A stretch of DNA of 64,000 nucleotides from an uncultured Mycoplasmatota bacterium (GCA_947574215.1 CANPIX010000001.1:15201-79200), one strand, 5' to 3'. Shown: positions 1,479 to 35,070, counted from the stretch's first letter. Program-made: numbers and translations. The notes: generated by a model not told the origin, from the sequence alone.

Positions 1479-3320
1479 GTGGTTAAAATGGAAAATGGAA
1501 TTTTTTTCTCAGTTATAAGTTTTGTCTATTGTATATTTGCAATGGTTTTGTTCTTTTCAAAAGATAAAATAAAATCGAAAGAAAATAAAATATATAGTAT
1601 TCTTCTTATAACCAATTTAATTGGTTTGTTTATTGAAGTAATCCCAATTACTCTAGGAATTCGAAATTTAATTTCTATGAGCAATACAACTTTGATTTTT
1701 TTATTAAAATTACTTCTTATATATTTCATAACATGGACTTTACTTTTTACCGATTATGTATTAATTGTTTCAAAAATGAAAGAAAAAACTATAAGTTTTT
1801 TTAAAACAATCGGTGTTATTTTAGAAATCATAAGTTCTATTGTTGTATTATTTCTCCCACTAGATTATTATATAAACAATGGGGCTGCGTATAGTTATGG
1901 TACTTCAGTAAATTATTGTTATTTATTAGCTGGGGTATTAATAAGTCTTTGCATTATTTTTTTACTTTTAAATATTAAAAAAATACCTTTAAAAAAATAT
2001 TACCCTCTACTTGTTTTTCTTCTATTAGGTACTATTATTATGATGATTCAATCTAAATTCCCAGAATTAACTTTAATGTCTTCTCTTCATACCTTTGTAA
2101 TTTTAGTCATGTTTCATTCTATAGAAAATCCAGATTTAAATTTAATTAATGAATTGGAAATCGCAAAAGAACAAGCAGATAAAGCCAATCAAGCAAAAAC
2201 GGAATTTTTATCCAGTATGTCTCACGAAATAAGAACGCCACTAAACGCTATTGTAGGTTTTAGTGAATGTATGTTGCCTTCTACCGATTTAAATGAGATA
2301 AAAGGTTTTGCAAAAGATATTGTAGATGCTTCTCACAACTTACTAGAAATTGTAAATGGTATTTTAGATATTTCAAAAATTGAAGCCAATAAAATGGAGA
2401 TTGTTCGCAAAGAGTACAATCCTAGAGAAGTTTTTAATTCTTTATGTAAATTGGTACGTCCAAGAATTGGAAATAAACCCATTGTATTTAAAGAAAATAT
2501 TTCTCCAGATCTGCCAGGTATTTTAAAAGGAGATATGGGAAAAGTTAAACAAATAATTTTAAATCTCCTTACTAACGCTGCAAAATACACAGATGAAGGT
2601 GAAATAGAATTTAATGTAACTTGTGTCAATCGGACAGATACAAAAAAATGTCTTCTTTATATTGCTGTTAAAGATACTGGACGTGGCATAAAACAAGAAG
2701 ATGTAAGTAAGTTATTTAATAAATTTGAAAGAATTGATGAAGATCGAAATACTACTATTGAGGGTACTGGACTTGGTCTTGCCATTACCAAAAGCTTAGC
2801 CGAAATGATGGGTGGTAAAATTACAGTTGACACAAAATTTGAAGAAGGATCTGTTTTTCGTGTTTATTTAGAACAAGAAATTATAAGTATGGAAATTCCA
2901 GAAAGTCAGTCTGAAGAAATAGAAATCGATTATAGTGCAAATCCTGGTAAGCGAATTTTAATTGTAGACGATTCAAAAATCAATTTAAAAGTAGCTAATC
3001 AAATATTAAAACCTTATAATTTTAATGTCACAATGGTGGAAAATGGTTTTGAGTGCTTAGAATTAATGGAAAGTAGTACTTATGATTTAATCTTAATGGA
3101 TATTATGATGCCAAAAATGAATGGTATAGAAACATTAAGAAGATTAAAGACAATAGAAGGTTTTGATATTCCAGTCATCGCTTTGACCGCTGATGCCATT
3201 GAAGGAACCGATGAAAAATACTTAAACGCTGGCTTTGATGCTTATCTTTCAAAACCAATTGATCGATACGATTTGGATCGAATGTTAAATAAATATTTAG
3301 GAGGAAAAAATGATGAATAA
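1479..3320 (+). CDS. hybrid sensor histidine kinase (multi-TM sensor, HisKA, HATPase_c, C-terminal receiver)
   Basis: N-terminal hydrophobic helices. H-box [17 protein letters not shown]-boxes GTGLGLAI. C-terminal REC domain ([11 protein letters not shown]...[13 protein letters not shown]). Confidence 0.85.
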
Positions 3321-4071
3321 TATTGATTTGTTAAAAGCATACAATGTAGATATTAACGCTGCATTAGAATTATGGGGAGACATGGAGTCTTATAACGAAA
3401 GTTTAAAAGAATTCAAAGATTCTTTGAATTCCAAACTTGCAAGTTTGGAAAACTTTAAAAATACAAATGACCTACAGAATTATGCTATTCTTGCTCATAG
3501 TATGAAAAGTGAATCCAAATACTTAGGTTTTATGAATGAAGCTGAAATATTTTTAGCCCATGAATTAAATGGAAAAGAAGGAAATAAAGAATTTATAGAT
3601 AATAACTTTAATACCATCAAAGAGACTGTTCGTAAAATGGTTACTCTGTTAAATTCCTATTTTAATAATGAAGAGAATGGACACAAAAAAAAGATTTTAA
3701 TTGCTGATGATTCAAATATTATTTTAAATTATTTAGAAAAAAATATAACTGAAGAATATAAAGTTTTAAAGGCGTTTGATGGTAGCGAAGCTATTGAATT
3801 ACTGAAAAACAATAGTATTTATGCTATTTTACTAGATTTAAATATGCCAGGATTAGATGGATTTGAAGTTTTAAAATATTTAAAAGAAAGCAATTTAATG
3901 GATAAAATTCCAGTGGTTATTATTACTGGCGATGATACAGAAGAAACTATAAAAAAGGCGTTTTCTTACCCTATTTTAGATGTTTTAAATAAACCATTTA
4001 ATGATAAAAGTGTTGATAAAATATTTATTTCTATTAAAAGTTTTTATGAAAATAAAAAAATTAGTGTATAA
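3310..4071 (+). CDS. Hpt domain + receiver domain protein (phosphorelay component)
   Basis: N-terminal Hpt-like [12 protein letters not shown] motif. C-terminal REC domain ([11 protein letters not shown]...[11 protein letters not shown]). Overlaps the hybrid HK by 11 nt and has a GGAGG Shine-Dalgarno. Confidence 0.75.
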
Positions 4072-4135
4072 AAAAATCTAAAAAGAATATACTATTACTA
4101 GAAACAATGAATTATTTGTTGTTTCTATATAAAGA

Positions 4136-4174
4136 AATCACTTACTTCAAAATTGAAGTAAGTGATTTTTTTTA
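4136..4174. terminator. bidirectional rho-independent terminator between convergent genes
   Basis: Perfect 15-bp stem aatcacttacttcaa / ttgaagtaagtgatt with an AA loop, followed by a T7 run. A matching A-run lies on the other side for the opposite strand. Confidence 0.7.
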
Positions 4175-4941
4175 AATTGCTTTTCAATTAAATGATAAGG
4201 ATAGCCTCTTTTGTCTATAGCATTTAAATTTAAATTTAAATTTTTTATAACTTTTATAAGGTCATCGTATTCTTTTTTTATTTCTTTGGTATACTTTTTA
4301 ATTTCAATTTCAATAAAATAACCTAAATTCTTTACATAATCTAAAGCTACTTCGTATTTATTTAAATAAAAATACGTAATCCTAGTCTTATTTACTGTAA
4401 TTAATTTTTCAATTTCTAACGCTTTAAAAATTTTTTTTAATGATTCTGTATCATCTATTTCTACTTCATATTCATCGCAATGCACGTCATACCATTTTTT
4501 ATAATTTAAAATCGATTTATTTCCCCTTTCTCCAATTCGTAGCCATTCACTTATTTTCTGTTTAGTCTCTATTTTTTCTTTATTGACAAAATTACGATTA
4601 CTTGGTTGATAATAGGTATCCAGTTGTCTTGATTCTTCTTTAAAAATTGCATTTTCTTTCATAAATTTTTCTAAATCTGTATATTCTTCTTCGGTTATTT
4701 TAATTTTTATTTCAGTTTCAATATTATTTTTTTCTACACCAATATATAGCAAATCACTTATTCGACAAGACAATATTTCACTTAATTTTACAATCAACTC
4801 CAAACTAGGTTCTGTGCGATTTTGTTCCCAACTAGAAACGGTTTTATCACTTACAAATAATTTTTCAGCAAGTTCTTGCTGGGTTAACTGTTTTCTTTTT
4901 CTAAAACATGCTATTTGATTACCAATATTCAAATTTATCAC
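4147..4941 (-). CDS. HTH XRE-family transcriptional regulator fused to a CYTH-like domain
   Basis: N-terminal XRE HTH (QQELAEKLFVSDKTVSSWEQNRTEPSLELIVKLSEIL). The C-terminal half carries CYTH-like signatures: EIKIKI near its start, QLDTYYQ, and a terminal FIEIEIK. Confidence 0.6.
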   Translation of the reverse strand: MINLNIGNQIACFRKRKQLTQQELAEKLFVSDKTVSSWEQNRTEPSLELIVKLSEILSCRISDLLYIGVEKNNIETEIKIKITEEEYTDLEKFMKENAIFKEESRQLDTYYQPSNRNFVNKEKIETKQKISEWLRIGERGNKSILNYKKWYDVHCDEYEVEIDDTESLKKIFKALEIEKLITVNKTRITYFYLNKYEVALDYVKNLGYFIEIEIKKYTKEIKKEYDDLIKVIKNLNLNLNAIDKRGYPYHLIEKQFKKNHLLQF

Positions 4942-5022
4942 CTATTTCATTGTAACATAAGAATTAAAAATGTTTTCTCTATAATTTGTAGAAATTTAAA
5001 ACATAAAAAAAAGTAGATTTTT

Positions 5023-5478
5023 CTACTTTTCACAAGTAATTCCCATTTGTTTATACAAAGCTTCAATAGTTTCTAATTTTACTTTACCATCTTTAATTAA
5101 TTGGCTATTTGCTGAATCTACTTCAATCATTTTAGCGGTATTAATTTTATTGTAATCAATGTTTGTAGTACTTGTTAAAACATTTCCATCAATACTTACG
5201 CTATAATTATAATGTTCAATGTCTTTATAAGGTTTGTATTGTTCTTCCACAGTTTCTTTGTATGTTTCTAGTAATTCTTTATTTTCACTTGTAATTTTTT
5301 CTGTAGATTTTACGATATCCACATTTTCTCCAGTATAAAGTACTTCATATTGTAAATCCAATGAGGCATCATTTTGATTCATTGTTCTTGAACATTTCAT
5401 AGTTTTTTGTTCAGCACCACAACCTACACTTAGTAAAACCGTAAAGCAAGCTACTAATGCTACTATTATTTTTTTCAT
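5023..5478 (-). CDS. lipoprotein (DUF1307/YehR-like), lipobox LSVGC
   Basis: Signal peptide with lipobox MKKIIVALVACFTVLLSVGCG. Confidence 0.6.
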   Translation of the reverse strand: MKKIIVALVACFTVLLSVGCGAEQKTMKCSRTMNQNDASLDLQYEVLYTGENVDIVKSTEKITSENKELLETYKETVEEQYKPYKDIEHYNYSVSIDGNVLTSTTNIDYNKINTAKMIEVDSANSQLIKDGKVKLETIEALYKQMGITCEK

Positions 5479-11013: not shown

Positions 11014-11090
11014 TGGTAGCGCCGGGGAGATTCGAACTCTCGACCTACCGGGTATGAACCGGTTGCTCTAGCCAACTGAGCTACAGCGCC
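11014..11090 (-). tRNA. tRNA-Met (elongator, anticodon CAU)
   Basis: The reverse complement folds as a 77-nt cloverleaf ending in CCA. Anticodon loop TTCATAC in stem ACCGG/CCGGT. There is no initiator C1-A72 mismatch and no GGG/CCC anticodon stem. The G1-U72 and U6-G67 wobbles match the Bacillus elongator Met tRNA. Confidence 0.8.
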
Positions 11091-27767: not shown

Positions 27768-27844
27768 TGGTAGCCTGTACGGGTTTCGAACCCGTGAATA
27801 CCACCTTGAGAGGGTGGCGTGTTAAGCCCCTTCACCAACAGGCC
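27768..27844 (-). tRNA. tRNA-Glu with anticodon CUC
   Basis: The reverse complement (GGCCTGTTGGTGAAGGGGCTTAACACGCCACCCTCTCAAGGTGGTATTCACGGGTTCGAAACCCGTACAGGCTACCA) closely resembles the Bacillus tRNA-Glu backbone. It has a 5-bp anticodon stem CCACC/GGTGG and loop CTCTCAA, which reads anticodon CTC. Confidence 0.7.
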
Positions 27845-29203: not shown

Positions 29204-29303
29204 TGGTATTCTCCTTTTTTTCTAAAAAATAAGTTTCTTCCTTTTTATAATAGCATACATTGACTTATTTTCAAATTTTTTAAAAGGCAATGACTACAAA
29301 TAT

Positions 29304-30587
29304 TTATCTAATTTTTCCCAACGAATCTTCCTCAATAGTATTTAAACGTTTTAAATCTTTTTCTGAGATTTGAATAACTTTTCCGCAACATGGATAAAAA
29401 TTTTTATTTCCATACACAATCCATATTATATTTTCATTTTTTAAATCTTCTTTAGGCATATTTCCAGGCCCAGGAATTCCATCCGTAAATACAATTTTAT
29501 TAATTTCTTTTTTCGCAGTAAAAGATCGTACCGCTAAATCCCAATCTTCTGTCCAAGCAAAATGAGAAGAATTTTCAGGAATTTCAAAATTATCAATATC
29601 TTTTGTTGATTTGATTTCTTTCCATCCCCAAAATTTTTCGTTAAAACATCCTACTTTTAATTTTGAATAGGAAAAAATGTTTTTTACGATTCTTAAGAAT
29701 GCTTTTACCAATTCTAAACTAACAGAGCCTGAAATATCAATCTGAACTTCCGTTTCACATTCTTCTTCTAAATCCGTTTCTTCTAAGCGATACGCATAAT
29801 TATTTTCTGCTATGCTTCTTCGTTGGCTCCAAATAATTTCTTCCTTTTCACTTTCTTTACGGAGCAAAAGTTCCCAATTAATTGTTTTTTCGCTTTCACC
29901 AACATTTCCTATTACCATAGAAGAAGACTTTTCTTCTTTCTTTTTTAAAACTCTTTCTTTCATTTGCTTATAATTTTGTTTGGCTTTTTGAAGTCGTTCT
30001 TGTCTATTTTCTGAAAATTCTTGATTTTCTTTTATTTCTTCAAACTCAAAATTATCTTCTAATTGCTCTTTTGCTTTTACAAACGCATCTTCCCATAAAC
30101 TATGATCACTTCCCGAAAACTCTTTTGCATTTGATTGGGTTTTCTTTTCTTTAATTAAAATCTCATAAAGTTCATCTGCTGAATAATTAAGTGCACCTGG
30201 AATATTCACATATCCTTGTTTTATTTTAAATCCATCTCTTTCTAGATTGGCATTAATAATGGCATCGGTTGCTTCGTTCCATACATCCAAATTTCTTTTT
30301 TTCTTATTATATTCTAAACGAAAAGGATGCCAAAACTTATTGTGCATTAACTCATGTGCTATTAAAAACAATCGATCGTTTTCATTCAATGTTTTCAAAT
30401 AATTTGGATCAATATATATTTTTTTACCATCCGTTGCAGCCGTATGATATTTTAAATGTTCATTAAATTCAAAAGAAGTATTTGCAATGTTACTTCCAAA
30501 ATGAGGATATTTTAAAAGTAATAATTGAATTGTCTCTTCTAATAATTTTTGTTCTTCCTTCATAAGTCTCCTAAAAAGCAACAACAC
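29304..30587 (-). CDS. HExxH putative metallopeptidase-like N-domain + VWA-like C-domain protein (DUF2201-type MoxR partner)
   Basis: HELMHNKFWHP...NEATDAIIN at the N-terminus. The C-terminal domain resembles VWA-like partners of MoxR ATPases. Overlaps the upstream ORF by 17 nt. Confidence 0.5.
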   Translation of the reverse strand: MLLLFRRLMKEEQKLLEETIQLLLLKYPHFGSNIANTSFEFNEHLKYHTAATDGKKIYIDPNYLKTLNENDRLFLIAHELMHNKFWHPFRLEYNKKKRNLDVWNEATDAIINANLERDGFKIKQGYVNIPGALNYSADELYEILIKEKKTQSNAKEFSGSDHSLWEDAFVKAKEQLEDNFEFEEIKENQEFSENRQERLQKAKQNYKQMKERVLKKKEEKSSSMVIGNVGESEKTINWELLLRKESEKEEIIWSQRRSIAENNYAYRLEETDLEEECETEVQIDISGSVSLELVKAFLRIVKNIFSYSKLKVGCFNEKFWGWKEIKSTKDIDNFEIPENSSHFAWTEDWDLAVRSFTAKKEINKIVFTDGIPGPGNMPKEDLKNENIIWIVYGNKNFYPCCGKVIQISEKDLKRLNTIEEDSLGKIR

Positions 30588-30960
30588 TAAAATGATACAA
30601 ATCTTCTGAAATATTTTTTATATTTTCTTGACATTGAATAGTAAAGACAACAATTACATTTTCAGGAAGCGTATAGCCATGAAATTCACGATTTTTTATC
30701 AAATTTATAAAACGATTTTGTTCTTCTTTTTTAATTTGATCTATTAAACGAATAACAAAATATGTGATACTCCCATTACTTGAAACTCGATCCAATTGTT
30801 TTTGAAAAAGAGGTTCACCAAAAGGAGTTCCGATCAAATAAGGATCTTTTATTTTGGCATCCATAAACACCGTTTGACCTAAATCCCTATAAAACTCGTC
30901 TAATATAATAACACAAGTACTATTTACTCCCTTTTGTAATTCAATTAATTCTTTATTCAT
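30571..30960 (-). CDS. hypothetical protein, translationally coupled between the AAA ATPase and the VWA-like protein
   Basis: ORF overlapping both neighbours by 4 nt and 17 nt. Confidence 0.4.
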   Translation of the reverse strand: MNKELIELQKGVNSTCVIILDEFYRDLGQTVFMDAKIKDPYLIGTPFGEPLFQKQLDRVSSNGSITYFVIRLIDQIKKEEQNRFINLIKNREFHGYTLPENVIVVFTIQCQENIKNISEDLYHFSVVAF

Positions 30961-33044
30961 CGGCTAACACCTTCTTTTATTTCTAACGATTCCATATTTT
31001 CTCGTTCTTTTAATTCATAAATAAATTCCATTCTCTTTTCGTCTTTTCCAATCCAACACAAATCGTATAAATCTCGATATTCAGGATCACAATATTCTTT
31101 TATAAATTTCCGACATTCCGCCACTTCCAATTCGTTTGCAAATAAAAGTGCAGAAACCAAAGCGTATCTTTCATTACTATCTCTAGGCAAATCAGTTTGA
31201 GTGTAATTTTTATTAACTACATCTTCCACCGAAAGTGTCATTTGATTGTAATAAGAAAAAAATTCTTCTGCCCAATACTCACGAAGCTTAGTGTGTATTG
31301 AAATTTTTAAAATATCTTCTACATCTTTTCCACTATATTTTCCCGCTTTTAAATTTTTTTCAAAAAGATAAAGTGTATTAGAAATGGAAACCCATCCACG
31401 AGGATCATTGGTTCTTCCTTTGCATCCCCATTTATCTAGTTGCTCTTCTCCTACTTCTGGTTCTTCATAAAAGTAGGAAATATCTTCTATTCTTTCACTT
31501 TTTCCAGTGCTTAAATACTTAGACAAAATATAATGGATAACCTGAGGGTGAACTTTGTTTGGTATAGCGAATTCAAAAAGCCATTCTCCCACCTTCGGCT
31601 CCATATCAAAAATGTGATCAAAACGTTTTTCTAATGGTTCGGCAAGATCTTGTGCAATGTTAGAGTATTTTTTTTGATTACCCGTTGCCACAATAACGAC
31701 ATTTTCTGGAAGTTTTAAACCTCCATTCATTTCTATCAAACGATTCAAAACCAAAGTATAAACAAGTCCTTGTACTGTTGGCTTTACATTTAGTAGTTCA
31801 TCCAATAGAAGAACAATCTTTTTTTCATTTTTTTTACTTCTTTCATACAAAGTATCAGCTAAATCATTTAAATTTTGGATATTTTCTTGAATTAATTTTT
31901 TTTCTTCTTCACTTGCACATCTTAACATAGCTTCTTTGTAAAAATCTGGAGGTATGCTTTGACCCGTTTGTAGATTTATAGATCCAACTACTTTTTCTGG
32001 AAACATATTGTTTGTTAATTTCAGATAAATTAAATCAGGATAAAGTGATTTTATTCTTTCTGTCTTTCCAATTCCAGATGGTCCACGCAAAAGTACAGAT
32101 TGTCCTGATTCAATCCAATTGTGTATAAGCTCTGTATCTGTCATTTTAACTCTTTCTTCTGCTTTGGTTTCATCTGGGTTCATTTTTTGTAATCTCGTTT
32201 TTCTTGGTTCTTTACTTGACTCTATTGTTTTTGCTACTTGGAAGTTTTTTGGAACGTTTACTACTTTAGCAAAATATTGATCCAAAAATTTTTTAATATT
32301 GGTATTATTAAAATCTCCTTTGTAATTTCTTTCTTTATTAAATTGAACACCAGAAAACAAAATAATTTTGGCAAGAGCTATATTTTCTTTTTCAGAAATC
32401 AGCCATTTTATCGGTTCTACTTCTATCCAATAAGGTTTTCCCTCTTTTATGGCTTCTCCATTCGATAAAGTTTGTTCTTTTCCATTAGAATCTCCTATAA
32501 ATCGAATGTATTTTTTATCATTATAAAAATACGTATCAAAAGTACGCAACTTAAAATCCGTATCGTATTTGTCATAAGCTATAGAATCAGCAGGATATTT
32601 TACTTCAGTTTTTAGAAGTTTTCCCCTTTTAAAGTTTTTTTCTAATTCTTTTTCTACGGCTTTAGAAACAACTGTTTGTGGCCATTCAAAGCATTCTACT
32701 TCAACAACTCCGTTTGCCCCTCTCACTTCGTTCGAGGAGATGGATTGGATTACTGAGTAAGGTAAAGCTGGACGACACCCAACTTTCCTATAATGAACAT
32801 TATACCAATGACTATCTCCAATCGAGTCAACCGCGCAGGCATCGTTATCTACAGGTGTTTTGCTCCACCACCAGCCAGTTCGATTTTTTAAATGTTCTTC
32901 TTCATTTGTATAAAAAAAATCTGATACTGCTCCTCCTAATAAAATAGAAAAATCAGATATAGCACACTTTGTCCCATATTTTTTTAGCACTTCTAATTGC
33001 TTTTCTCCAAATATTTGTTCTTCTGTTAAAAATGTAAAATCCAT
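30957..33044 (-). CDS. DGR target protein: N-terminal C-type-lectin-like variable domain fused to a MoxR/AAA_5 ATPase
   Basis: AAA_5 motifs: Walker A LLRGPSGIGKTERI, Walker B LLLDELLNV, and sensor VATGNQ. Residues ~75-100 are encoded by the VR. A WWWSKT...VGCRPAL signature resembles DUF1566/FGE-type CLec targets. Confidence 0.75.
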   Translation of the reverse strand: MDFTFLTEEQIFGEKQLEVLKKYGTKCAISDFSILLGGAVSDFFYTNEEEHLKNRTGWWWSKTPVDNDACAVDSIGDSHWYNVHYRKVGCRPALPYSVIQSISSNEVRGANGVVEVECFEWPQTVVSKAVEKELEKNFKRGKLLKTEVKYPADSIAYDKYDTDFKLRTFDTYFYNDKKYIRFIGDSNGKEQTLSNGEAIKEGKPYWIEVEPIKWLISEKENIALAKIILFSGVQFNKERNYKGDFNNTNIKKFLDQYFAKVVNVPKNFQVAKTIESSKEPRKTRLQKMNPDETKAEERVKMTDTELIHNWIESGQSVLLRGPSGIGKTERIKSLYPDLIYLKLTNNMFPEKVVGSINLQTGQSIPPDFYKEAMLRCASEEEKKLIQENIQNLNDLADTLYERSKKNEKKIVLLLDELLNVKPTVQGLVYTLVLNRLIEMNGGLKLPENVVIVATGNQKKYSNIAQDLAEPLEKRFDHIFDMEPKVGEWLFEFAIPNKVHPQVIHYILSKYLSTGKSERIEDISYFYEEPEVGEEQLDKWGCKGRTNDPRGWVSISNTLYLFEKNLKAGKYSGKDVEDILKISIHTKLREYWAEEFFSYYNQMTLSVEDVVNKNYTQTDLPRDSNERYALVSALLFANELEVAECRKFIKEYCDPEYRDLYDLCWIGKDEKRMEFIYELKERENMESLEIKEGVSR
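32765..32838 (-). repeat. DGR variable repeat (VR) inside the target gene
   Basis: A 74-bp match to 34355-34428. 11 of 12 mismatches occur where the TR coding strand has A. Confidence 0.8.
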
Positions 33045-33119
33045 ATGACACTCACCTTTATTTTAATAATAACACAAATTGTAATTTTTTGGTATTTTCT
33101 TAGTACTTTGACATTTTTT

Positions 33120-34142
33120 TTACATTTTGGGATGTACTTTTTCTATAAACTTCTTACTTTCTTGTGTTTTTTTCACATGGTTATAAAAAGCATTTTTTCT
33201 CTCATAAACATATTTTTCATCGACTATTTTTTTCTCATACAACTTATCGATCGTTTTTAGATGTTTTTTCATTCGCTTTTTAGAAGATTGTCTTAATTTA
33301 ACTATAATTTTTCCGTTTTCTTTTACAATATGACGATATCCTAAAAAATCAATACCATTTTGAACGCAACCAATTTGCGTTTTTTCGTTTAAATTTAAAT
33401 CCAAATTTTTTCTACACATCTCTTCTATTTTTGTTTTACAATCTTTTAAAAACGCTTTCTCACAATGGATCAAAATCATATCATCCATATAACGAATATA
33501 ATGTTTCACTTGTAATCTTTCTTTTATCAAACGATCTATACCATTTAAATAAAATAAAGCAAACCATTGACTTGATTGATTTCCTAATGGTAGACCCTTA
33601 TTTACGTTATTGGGCTGTTCTTGGATCAATTTTTGAATCATCCAAATTTCATCCAAAGAAAAATCTAATTTCTCCAAAAGTTTTAATAAAATTGTGTGAT
33701 TTATACTTGGAAAATATTTTTTTATATCACACTTTAAAAAGTAAAACTGGTTACTTCCTTTTTTTCTATATTCTTTTTTTAAAAACAAATGCAAACGTTG
33801 AATCGCAAAATTGATACCTTTTCCTTTCTGACAAGCAACATTATCGTAAATTAATCTCTTTTCTAATTTTGGTTTTAAAGAATAATCACAAAAACAACGC
33901 ACTACCACTCGATCTTTAAAGGGAAGCGCTTCAATTAATCTTTCTTTTGGTTCATAAATTAAAAATTGTTTGTATTTTCCTAACTTGTATTTTCTGGTTG
34001 TAATTTCTTCTATAATTTTATAAATATTCATAGCCAGATTAATTTCAAACCGAATAACTTCTCCTTTATGTTGCTTCCCTTTTCGACAATGTTTATAGGA
34101 AAGATAAATATTTTCAAAAGTAAATATTTCTTCTAACTTCAT
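33120..34142 (-). CDS. DGR-type reverse transcriptase
   Basis: RT motifs including YMDD (YIRYMDDMILIH) and the DGR-characteristic LPLGNQSSQ. 340 aa. TR lies immediately upstream. Confidence 0.85.
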   Translation of the reverse strand: MKLEEIFTFENIYLSYKHCRKGKQHKGEVIRFEINLAMNIYKIIEEITTRKYKLGKYKQFLIYEPKERLIEALPFKDRVVVRCFCDYSLKPKLEKRLIYDNVACQKGKGINFAIQRLHLFLKKEYRKKGSNQFYFLKCDIKKYFPSINHTILLKLLEKLDFSLDEIWMIQKLIQEQPNNVNKGLPLGNQSSQWFALFYLNGIDRLIKERLQVKHYIRYMDDMILIHCEKAFLKDCKTKIEEMCRKNLDLNLNEKTQIGCVQNGIDFLGYRHIVKENGKIIVKLRQSSKKRMKKHLKTIDKLYEKKIVDEKYVYERKNAFYNHVKKTQESKKFIEKVHPKM

Positions 34143-34354
34143 AAATCTCCTTAAAAAAGAAACACTCTTTTCAATGTTCCAAAAAAATATTTCGTTGGTT
34201 CATCTAGAGTGTTTTTTATTCTTCTATTGCTTATTTAAAAAACGTAGCCAATAGAAAAGAAGAAAATTCCTTCACCTTACAATATTGATTTATTTTTCTT
34301 AAAATAAATTTCTCAAATTTGTTTTTTGGATTTTACAAAATCCCTTCAAAAGTG

Positions 34355-34428
34355 AATCTGGACGAGACCCAACTTTCCTATTATTAACATTATTCCAATT
34401 TCTATTTCCATTTTAGTTAACCGCGCAG
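34355..34428 (-). repeat. DGR template repeat (TR), intergenic between avd-like gene and RT
   Basis: Non-coding copy of the VR. In the VR reading frame it is dominated by AAT/AAC codons: aac, aat, aat, aat, aat, aat, aat, aat. Confidence 0.8.
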
Positions 34429-34476: not shown

Positions 34477-35070
34477 TTAAAGGCTTTTCAACCTAAAATC
34501 CTTATTTTTAAATCTTTCATCATCACTTTTTTTCCAAGCACCTATTAAATTGATACTCTTAGCAATTTGTTTTGCTATTTGTTTGTATTGCCGTTTTAAA
34601 ATACATCCAGATGATTCTGCTAACATAGAAATATAGCCAAGTAGTTTCAATTTAATAATGGCATCTTTTTGTAAATTCTCTCTTTGGATTTTGTTTTCTT
34701 TTGAATCCATTCGAATAAAGTTTGCTTCTAACAAAAGTTCTAAAGTATCTAAACAATAATTTTGCATGCGGTTTACAAAAACCCCACGAAACTTTTTAGG
34801 AGATTTTTCGGTGACTACCAAAACATACGCGCCTAATTTTTTAATCTGAGTAATCACAATTAAATCGTTGGCATTAAATGGAATTTTTTCTATTTGTTTT
34901 AATTCCTCGTCAGCTAAAATAAATTCTTCTTTTTCTTTATATTTTTCATTATTTGCCTTACATATTTCCTTTTTTACTGCCAATATATCTTCTTTTGTAT
35001 TCAAATTTTCTTCCATATCCAAAACAATTTTAGGAATTTTTAAATTGTTTGCTCTACTAACTTGCAACAC
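34477..35070 (-). CDS. avd: Avd-like accessory variability determinant (four-helix-bundle family), with N-terminal extension or internal start
   Basis: The C-terminal ~130 aa resemble the Avd/four-helix-bundle family: SPKKFRGVFVNRMQNY ~ PKEE+YGLTSQ+RRAA, and LKLLGYIS...QIAKSINLIGAWKKS ~ AKDLGYI...ISKMLNGLIKSL. Basic. Ends 49 nt before TR. Confidence 0.55.
   Translation of the reverse strand: MLQVSRANNLKIPKIVLDMEENLNTKEDILAVKKEICKANNEKYKEKEEFILADEELKQIEKIPFNANDLIVITQIKKLGAYVLVVTEKSPKKFRGVFVNRMQNYCLDTLELLLEANFIRMDSKENKIQRENLQKDAIIKLKLLGYISMLAESSGCILKRQYKQIAKQIAKSINLIGAWKKSDDERFKNKDFRLKSL

Follow-up and report, generated by a model that had tools for sequence, protein, structure and literature searches.

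To our knowledge, diversity-generating retroelements (DGRs) are the sole prokaryotic system for targeted protein hypermutation. The cellular DGR targets described so far are mostly surface proteins whose variable lectin domain is C-terminal, and the variable repeat (VR) typically, though not obligatorily, encodes the C-terminus of the target. The prototype is the DGR of Bordetella phage BPP-1 (avd-TR-brt, with mtd as the target), in which sequence flows from the template repeat (TR) to the VR in an adenine-specific manner, as it does in the locus analysed here. In the gut phages nd4 and nd12, the DGR targets are 'tentaclins', receptor-binding proteins in which a DUF6273 domain is followed by Ig-like domains, and the VR is found near the 5' end of the target gene, within this C-type-lectin-like DUF6273 domain (PMC10743442). 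Besides, DGR-linked MoxR/vWA 'VMAP ternary' and STAND NTPase systems were reported from cyanobacteria, Thiohalocapsa and other multicellular bacteria and were proposed to be conflict systems (PMC7159879, PMC10907252). A further described system, compared here by its description only, combines a variable domain and an AAA-type ATPase in one polypeptide, as our locus does, while its variable region is C-terminal and its lineage, habitat and RT clade are different.

The locus is located in a 64,000-nt stretch of DNA from an uncultured Mycoplasmatota bacterium (hereafter the window), and its parts are encoded on the minus strand in the order Avd-like gene, TR, structured spacer, bRT-like reverse transcriptase (RT) and target gene with VR. 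An earlier note on this DNA had pointed to a 74-bp repeat with 12 mismatches, one copy (32765-32838) inside a 695-aa gene and the other (34355-34428) between genes, and had read the two as VR and TR. Both the repeat and the placement of its copies were reproduced when the two copies, 1590 bp apart, were compared without gaps. When sorted by template base on the minus strand, the mismatches are not spread over the four bases; 11 of the 12 fall at adenines of the TR, where the VR carries G, C or T (VR positions 32767, 32792, 32795, 32804, 32810, 32811, 32816, 32821, 32823, 32824 and 32828), and the sole exception is 32776, with C in the TR and G in the VR. The 74-nt TR contains 27 adenines, 16 of which are unchanged in the VR, and the binomial probability that 11 or more of 12 mismatches would fall at A is ~1e-4. 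A search of the window with a pattern that has N at every TR adenine retrieved these two sites and no others, with 0 matches expected in shuffles. The in-frame reading given for the TR (AAC TAA AAT GGA AAT AGA AAT TGG AAT AAT GTT AAT AAT) and the VR peptide D S I G D S H W Y N V H Y were likewise correct, and in the frame of the VR the TR holds eight AAY codons together with TAA, AGA, AGG and AAA.

Although all 11 adenine positions were recovered, the one at 32767 does not belong to the exchanged sites. Alignment of 22 TR/VR pairs revealed that past CCAG all related TRs continue with ATTCAC and all related VRs with CTTTAC, and since the flanks differ after CCAG in every relative, the apparent A to C change at 32767 is a fixed difference at the homology boundary. 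The true homology is thus 71 nt long, comprising the VR at 32768-32838 (codons 69-93 of the target gene) and the intergenic TR at 34358-34428 (26 A), with 10 of 11 mismatches at TR adenines. The 3' end of the VR is formed by an IMH-like element (32768-32783, minus strand, GTTGGGTGTCGTCCAG), right after which the TR homology stops; in the relatives aligned as these 22 pairs, the element is G+C-rich (GGGGCTCGCCCAG). No hairpin was found 3' of the VR (z -0.12).

The isolate comparison proposed in the earlier note was made with L076, another ENA assembly of the same strain, and the two samples may not be independent. This locus was reached via P0121, a cluster mate of the window protein P0001, as a look-up of P0001 itself returned no recorded gene with an exactly identical product. 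Over 14.1 kb, 15 of the 16 substitutions between the two assemblies are confined to a 49-bp stretch of the VR, and outside the VR only 1 SNP and one 10-bp indel were observed. Fourteen of the 15 VR substitutions are at TR-adenine positions, while the TR is identical in both assemblies, and all 12 mismatches between the VR and TR of L076 are at A. Only the window assembly has G at 32776; L076 has C there, as the TR does, and its TR and VR copies of the IMH-like block are identical. Variation was observed at positions from 32791 to 32828 (aa 73-85). Judged from these two near-identical assemblies, the DGR is evidently one with recent activity.

The avd gene (34477-35070, minus strand) encodes a 197-aa protein; its aa 70-182 form a bAvd-like four-helix-bundle region, preceded by a conserved N-terminal extension of ~70 aa. 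Its matches to Pfam bAvd PF22296 (E 1e-4) and NCBIfam DivGenRetAVD NF033474 (E 8.6e-8, profile positions 1-104 of 104) are both under the curated cut-offs, and no match was obtained against PDB sequences. A homologue of ~200 aa is nevertheless present directly 5' of the TR in ~20 related loci. The RT gene (33120-34142, minus strand) encodes a DGR-type enzyme of 340 aa (Pfam RVT_1, E 1e-18) with the motifs YMDD and LGNQSSQ, the latter aligned to IGSLTSQ of bRT, and with Arg68 aligned to Arg74 of bRT. Its best solved relative is 8ub7_A (328 aa, E 1e-37; next best 3e-13), a chain that we take to be Bordetella bRT. Among phages, the best relatives are the RTs of nd12, VHML, Faecalibacterium phages and Bordetella phages, all of them DGR carriers, and the nearest RT in the phage collection is that of nd12 (39% identity, E 4e-71).

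The spacer between TR and RT gene (34143-34357, minus strand) forms a structured portion of the presumed DGR RNA. In helix H1, which takes in the last TR bases, 34361-34349 are paired with 34278-34269; this helix is followed by four further elements, namely the hairpin H2 (~34343-34328), H3 (34309-34301 with 34296-34288), H4 (34258-34247 with 34230-34220) and H5 (34213-34206 with 34167-34160), and then by a T-run and the ribosome-binding site AAGGAG. RNAalifold on 15 loci predicted 41 pairs, 24 of which are changed on both sides. In the helices 95.9% of the cells are paired, compared with ~50% when the partners are slid, and the observed level of covariation was reached in 0 of 500 shuffles. 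The fold of the single sequence is not significant (z -0.99), scans for promoters and terminators performed no better than on shuffles, and an Rfam scan returned two tRNAs only and no family for the spacer RNA. The compact, conserved TR-spacer RNA with its 71-nt TR may be of use in mechanistic or engineering work.

Taken as a set, avd, TR, spacer, RT and target, together with the sister-assembly comparison, support the DGR reading of the earlier note, and the locus is supported as a genuine DGR with canonical machinery. It shares with BPP-1 an Avd-like gene directly 5' of the TR, a structured spacer RNA between TR and RT gene, an RT with [I/L/V]GxxxSQ and YMDD motifs, a G+C-rich IMH-like block that ends the VR, and a TR dominated by AAY codons. 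In BPP-1, however, the target lies 5' of avd, the VR is C-terminal in a tail-fibre protein and the DGR is phage-borne, whereas here the target lies 3' of the RT, the VR is N-terminal in a predicted intracellular AAA+ ATPase and the element is chromosomal. Further differences from BPP-1 are the short 71-nt TR with an in-frame TAA and the post-VR hairpin, which was not detected in our locus.

The target gene (30957-33044, minus strand) encodes 695 aa, beginning with a DUF6273-like variable domain (aa 1 to ~100), followed by a second well-modelled domain to ~aa 260 and a helical C-terminal region. Its AAA_5 ATPase is recognised by Pfam with 26.7 bits (cut-off 22) and carries the Walker A motif GPSGIGKT and the Walker B motif LLLDE, both motifs being invariant in the family. 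Weak matches to DUF6273 were obtained for 16 and to Fib_succ_major for 11 of 28 family members. The AF2 model of the full target has a pLDDT of ~95 for aa 1-260, and a model of the N-terminal part only has a pLDDT of 38. When the full model was used in fold searches, the matches were AAA+ proteins and one IgA peptidase; the profile of the target family did not match any PDB sequence. Neither a signal peptide nor a membrane segment was found (maximal 19-residue hydropathy 1.25). The variable patch (aa 73-87) is taken to be a surface patch of the N-terminal, putatively C-type-lectin-like DUF6273 domain. Exchange reaches up to 12 codons in this patch, allowing ~5e12 possible peptides, while the scaffold residues Gly76, Val83 and Arg86, whose codons have no A at the changeable positions, stay fixed. 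The VR sits near the N-terminus (aa 73-87 of 695) and not at the C-terminal end usual for DGRs. A variable region at the very start of a predicted cytoplasmic AAA+ ATPase that appears to have no membrane segment is atypical and differs from most described cellular targets; the type of target is rarely described, and the mechanism is well known.

The tentaclin DGR of nd12 is similar in having the gene order small ORF, TR, RT and target as well as a 5'-proximal VR in DUF6273, and its RT is the nearest among phages. Nevertheless, the tentaclins carry Ig-like domains, whereas in our target the ~100-aa domain that starts at residue 1 is followed by an AAA_5 ATPase; neither Ig nor Fn3 domains were found in it by Pfam or in the AF2 model, and it shows no significant sequence similarity to nd12 target1. 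The tentaclins are moreover phage-encoded, while the target family here is cellular.

Two conserved genes follow the target on the minus strand. The start of orf129 (30571-30960, 129 aa) overlaps the stop of the target gene, and this ORF, which in the majority of 75 related gut-MAG loci adjoins the target, matched nothing in Pfam, NCBIfam or PADLOC. The next gene (29304-30587) encodes a zincin-like metallopeptidase with a DUF2201_N domain (Pfam PF13203, E 5e-20) and the motif HELMHxKFxH, whose C-terminal half contains a MIDAS-like DISGS motif and is taken to be VWA-like, although Pfam VWA models did not match the protein. Both motifs are invariant in the relatives (HExxH in 62 of 62 loci, DxSGS in 61 of 61). 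The trio of ATPase, orf129 and DUF2201_N protein is conserved across the related loci; NCBIfam gave nothing specific for it, PADLOC placed it in no known defence system (a weak partial DolB match only), and nothing functional on DUF2201 was found in the literature. Like the VMAP and STAND systems, the locus couples a DGR-diversified lectin-like domain to an NTPase and a vWA-type partner; the domain is predicted to be cytoplasmic and is proposed to be a sensor. In those systems, by contrast, the CLec/FGS domain is C-terminal and usually carried by the vWA protein or the STAND NTPase, while in our locus the ATPase itself carries it at the N-terminus. The partners differ as well, being the zincin and VWA-like DUF2201 protein and the 129-aa protein; no VMAP, TIR, caspase or trypsin domain, nor any other effector family, was found by Pfam in orf129 or the neighbouring genes. 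The locus is thus not a VMAP ternary system, which combines a MoxR-like AAA+ ATPase and a vWA-domain protein with a VMAP protein that has a peptidase, cyclase or adaptor domain. The hosts of the VMAP and STAND systems are multicellular, in contrast to the small-genome gut Bacillota here.

Homologues of the target are common in Bacilli and Clostridia of the mammalian gut, with more than 1000 at ~60% identity. About 20 of the 75 related loci have the same avd-TR-RT-target layout and clean TR/VR pairs that differ at A only, with 9-17 A mismatches and 0-1 non-A mismatches per 60 nt, and their VR invariably begins ~200 nt from the gene start. Along the entire protein of the target family, entropy is highest at ten positions (73, 74, 75, 77, 79, 81, 82, 84, 85 and 87), which are exactly the residues encoded by TR-adenine codons. 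In 48 near-identical protein pairs, 332 differing sites fall within 15 aa, compared with 253 within ~722 aa. Sixteen related loci contain the N-terminal domain with no RT within 6 kb, and in the wider domain family the domain occupies residues 1-120 of proteins of 100-890 aa. The exact pattern with N at every TR adenine had no match in JGI metagenome contigs; the closest relatives of the locus are found in ENA/NCBI rather than in JGI.

We consider it very probable that the locus is a chromosomal DGR (avd, TR, spacer and RT), situated directly 5' of its one target gene in the window, which it diversifies. By analogy with the Bordetella phage paradigm, the TR-spacer RNA would be copied into cDNA by an RT-Avd complex, with random bases inserted opposite template adenines, and the cDNA would then take the place of the VR, bounded 5' by the block CTGCGCGGTT and 3' by the IMH-like block GGGT(C/G)TCGTCCAG. 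The variable domain, fused to an AAA_5 (MoxR/McrB/dynein-class) ATPase that probably carries no export signal and is encoded together with orf129 and the zincin-VWA-like protein, may bind ligands as a sensor, or select substrates, for an ATPase machine inside the cell. Such a sensor would most likely recognise changing foreign molecules, for instance phage or mobile-element proteins, in analogy to what has been proposed for the DGR-diversified MoxR/vWA and STAND systems of multicellular bacteria.

A relic that records past mutagenic homing in a system now dead in this organism would be in line with Avd scores under the curated thresholds and with the non-adenine VR change at 32776, which could be ordinary drift. 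The assemblies, however, differ at 14 TR-adenine positions of the VR against one SNP and one indel elsewhere, no ORF is disrupted, the RT retains YMDD and LGxxxSQ and the TR is the same in both, which makes a dead element very improbable. We regard as less probable still that the DGR belongs to a phage or mobile element and switches the receptor-binding specificity of a virion, as in BPP-1 or the tentaclins. The RT, DUF6273 and gene-order likeness to nd12 would fit such an origin (PMC10743442), yet the target is an AAA+ ATPase that lacks Ig-like or fibre domains, and the flanking genes have housekeeping character, encoding Hsp20, GlnS, NAGPA, a Crp-like regulator and NrdD, the same flanks being kept in L052 and L076. 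The G+C content is unremarkable (0.29 versus 0.276; genome 27.6%), the target family yielded 1 weak match among the 2.9 million contigs of IMG/VR, and searches of cultured phages with the target gave remote AAA+ matches only; a prophage origin was rejected on the grounds of the neighbouring genes, the composition and the IMG/VR scan. As A is the commonest TR base in a genome of such low G+C content, the adenine bias might also be suspected to be a composition artefact in a chance or recombinational duplication. The bias of P ~1e-4 in the window pair alone, the 0 matches expected in shuffles and the recurrence of the pattern in ~20 independent genomes with adjacent RT and Avd speak against this, and the adenine patterns of the sister assembly and the related loci refute it, leaving a negligible probability.

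A weightier question is whether a real DGR here serves an immune-type sensor at all. The ATPase might instead be a MoxR-like chaperone or protease adaptor with a variable tip for changing endogenous or nutritional substrates, or the gene a contingency locus with ON/OFF switching via DGR-made stop codons as its chief output, a reading that we consider possible but rather unlikely. Classically, a MoxR-class ATPase with a VWA partner is a maturation chaperone; the trio does not match known defence systems and many family members have no linked RT. Moreover, nonsense alleles account for six of the 20 VR alleles from relatives, close to the proportion that would arise in the absence of selection, and such stop codons, which in several relatives are DGR-made, are unusual and hard to reconcile with a constantly needed sensor. 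Use of genetic code 4 by these relatives was rejected because the genes with VR stops end in TGA at the expected place. On the other hand, we know of no hypervariation of a lectin-like patch at the scale of ~5e12 variants other than for the recognition of fast-changing ligands, which argues for the sensor, as does the proposal that DGR-linked MoxR/vWA and NTPase systems are conflict systems (PMC7159879, PMC10907252).

Returning to the recognition of foreign molecules by the diversified ATPase, we tentatively suggest, as an idea that may well prove wrong, that the three genes encode a previously undescribed intracellular machine which couples immune-like anticipatory recognition to DGR-driven ON/OFF switching and is widespread in unicellular, small-genome gut Bacillota. 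Switching of the whole machine is conceivable, as the VR is placed early in the gene and stop-prone codons (TAA, AAA, AGA) are present in the TR, and the nonsense alleles of the relatives point in the same direction. If true, the idea of intracellular DGR-diversified 'antigen sensors' would no longer be restricted to multicellular cyanobacteria and purple sulfur bacteria but would also cover ordinary commensals of the gut, and DGR-made stop codons close to the N-terminus would offer a testable tie of hypermutation to phase variation.

The template repeat (TR) and the variable repeat (VR) of the diversity-generating retroelement (DGR) lie on the minus strand at 34428-34355 and 32838-32765, respectively. 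There, the 74-bp repeat pair recognized in the earlier note gives a gapless alignment, offset by 1590 bp, with 12 mismatches. The coordinates listed for the 11 mismatches at which the intergenic copy carries A and the genic copy G, C or T proved exact, as did the sole mismatch off a template A (34366/32776, C versus G), but the "A to C" at 32767 is the boundary of homology and not a product of mutagenesis, since the flank beyond the homology end reads ATTCACTTTTGA in every TR and CTTTACC in every VR. In all pairs, homology begins at a G+C-rich block coding for "ARVV" and its far end is GGGGCTCGCCCAG (GGGTCTCGTCCAG in the AT-rich genome of the window), leaving 71 nt of true TR/VR homology. The reading of the TR in frame (AAC TAA AAT GGA AAT AGA AAT TGG AAT AAT GTT AAT AAT) and the VR translation (D S I G D S H W Y N V H Y) were also reproduced. 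The adenine bias of the mismatches (binomial P ~1e-4) is not an effect of composition, because only 27 of the 74 TR nucleotides are A and 16 of these are kept in the VR. A TR-derived pattern in which every A is replaced by N finds nothing but this pair in the 64-kb window, against an expectation of none in shuffles, and hence the window contains one TR and one VR. A hairpin 3' of the VR was looked for and none was found.

The inspection of a second isolate's VR suggested in the earlier note turned out positive. The 90% cluster of the 695-aa target protein has one further member, P0121 from ENA assembly ERZ14651000, which has 9 residue differences from the window protein, all within aa 74-90. 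In a 14.1-kb DNA-level alignment of the window with this sister contig, one SNP (34882) and one 10-bp intergenic indel (29258-29267, minus strand TAAGTCAATG, between the DUF2201 and NAGPA genes) are the only differences outside the VR, compared with 15 substitutions within it, confined to 32776-32824. Fourteen of these fall on TR-adenine positions, and the 15th is 32776, where the sister carries C, as does the TR. The TR sequence is the same in both assemblies, and all 12 mismatches between the sister VR and the TR are on adenines. These are two VR haplotypes on an otherwise identical background, whether or not both assemblies represent independent samples. The variation is TR-templated, concerns 12 codons and is restricted to adenines, with a theoretical VR repertoire of ~4.6e12 peptides.

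The target has more than 1000 homologues at ~60% identity, mainly from gut metagenomes. When 120 homologues are aligned, entropy over the entire protein is highest in ten columns (73, 74, 75, 77, 79, 81, 82, 84, 85 and 87), which are the codons with A at TR position 1 or 2. G76, V83 and R86, inside the VR, are invariant. Among 48 protein pairs that are less than 1% different elsewhere, 332 differing sites were counted in 15 VR residues versus 253 in the ~722 others. We also identified 75 related loci in species-representative genomes, namely MAGs of uncultured Bacilli, Clostridia and "Tenericutes" from mouse, sheep, goat, rabbit, chicken and human. According to tblastn, nearly all carry the trio of target, 129-aa ORF and DUF2201_N protein, and 24 have Avd and RT directly upstream of it. 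A scan for adenine-biased repeat pairs picked out ~20 loci in which 9-17 A mismatches per 60 nt stand against 0-1 non-A ones; in all of them, the VR is located ~200 nt inside the target gene.

The genes in question are all encoded by the minus strand, in the order Avd-like ORF (197 aa, 34477-35070), TR, a 215-nt spacer, RT (340 aa, 33120-34142) and target (30957-33044). Residues 70-182 of the Avd-like protein match the bAvd and DivGenRetAVD profiles with E-values of 1e-4 and 8.6e-8, both under the curated cut-offs. Usual Avd proteins are only about as long as the 104-107-position profiles; the ~70-aa N-terminal extension seen here is conserved in relatives (~200 aa in total). The best match of the RT among all solved structures is 8ub7_A (328 aa, E 1e-37; second best 3e-13), which we take to be the Bordetella phage bRT. 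LGNQSSQ of the window RT aligns to IGSLTSQ of bRT and R68 to R74, and the RT has YMDD. In 50,697 phage records, the RT is matched best by nd12, VP585, VHML, ANMV-1 and Faecalibacterium phages, and five Bordetella phage records match as well; several of these phages carry DGRs. The DGR machinery is canonical.

The TR-RT spacer (34143-34361, minus strand) is conserved, with a predicted fold of five helices across 15 loci. Of the 41 pairs predicted, 24 have changed on both sides; paired cells make up 95.9%, versus ~50% when the partners are slid, and none of 500 shuffles reached the covariation score. The long-range helix H1 joins the last bases of the TR and the ATTCACTT box to AAGGTGAA, ~85 nt downstream, and covaries (TCAC/GTGA versus TGCC/GGCA); a T-run comes after the terminal stem H5, immediately ahead of the RT ribosome-binding site. 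The spacer is the expected DGR RNA in a lineage-specific form, and no family for it was found in Rfam. By the BPP-1 paradigm, RT and Avd would synthesize cDNA on the TR-spacer RNA, and this cDNA would then home into the VR.

The N-terminal ~100 aa of the target (…RTGWWWSKTP…AVD-x-G…V…R-x-VG-x-RPALP) weakly match the C-terminal part of DUF6273, and Fib_succ_major (E 0.036 in the window protein). Sixteen and 11 of 28 relatives match these two profiles, respectively (best E ~1e-4). A profile of this domain retrieved 1149 50%-identity clusters, nearly always at residues 1-120 of 100-890-aa proteins, and one relative exceeds the DUF6273 cut-off. According to published work, DUF6273 resembles C-type lectins and is a DGR target in gut phages, where the VRs occupy its C-terminal end (PMC10743442, PMC11792537). 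AAA_5 matches residues 317-475 above cut-off with invariant Walker A and B motifs, and annotations describe phage relatives of this ATPase part as related to MoxR, CobS or dynein. In the full-length AF2 model, confidence is high over aa 1-260 (pLDDT ~95) and moderate over the ATPase. The DUF2201_N protein retains HExxHxxxxH in 62/62 loci and a MIDAS-like DxSGS in 61/61, and neither signal peptide nor membrane segment was found in any of the three trio proteins. This architecture, together with published proposals on DGR-linked MoxR/vWA and NTPase systems (PMC7159879, PMC10907252), suggests that the variable domain may serve as the ligand sensor of an intracellular ATPase with a zincin-VWA partner.

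Large surveys report C-terminal VRs as near-universal (bioRxiv 10.1101/2020.04.01.020958) and just a handful of N-terminal cases (PMC5758913). In the published AAA-fused targets of CPR bacteria and MoxR/vWA-linked targets of multicellular bacteria, the lectin domain is C-terminal, whereas the VR is N-terminal here. Phage nd12, the nearest phage relative, likewise has its VR in a 5'-proximal DUF6273 domain and the genes in the same order, but its target is a virion protein. The present element is a DGR of the known kind with an under-described target architecture, and members of its family may already stand in DGR catalogues.

The element is chromosomal. Its neighbours encode Hsp20, GlnS, NAGPA, tRNA-Glu, a Crp-like regulator and NrdD, its composition agrees with the genome, and the target family is nearly absent from IMG/VR. 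tRNA-Glu(CTC) (27768-27844) lies ~1.5 kb downstream of the trio, and the window also holds tRNA-Met(CAT) (11014-11090). No hint of an integration site was seen.

The window TR contains an in-frame TAA at codon 74 (34412-34414, minus strand) besides the stop-prone codons AGA and AAA, and TRs of several relatives contain TAA or TGA. Six of 20 related VR alleles (loci L002, L005, L022, L035, L052 and L053) hold the only in-frame stop of the target gene. Three of these stops differ from the corresponding TR codon and are therefore products of mutagenesis. As the VR is N-terminal (aa 73-87 of ~700), stop alleles should be null; they may reflect tolerated, DGR-driven ON/OFF switching or, alternatively, a consensus or assembly artefact. 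In 16 related loci (L010, L014, L019, L020, L024 and 11 more), the trio with N-terminal domain and ATPase has no RT within 6 kb; possible explanations are diversification in trans, loss of the DGR, or that they were never diversified. Four loci from some Clostridia MAGs (L006, L009, L011 and L012) have a single TR for two paralogous 740-aa targets (e.g., 2911-5133 and 5995-8217 in L009), each with its own diversified N-terminal VR.
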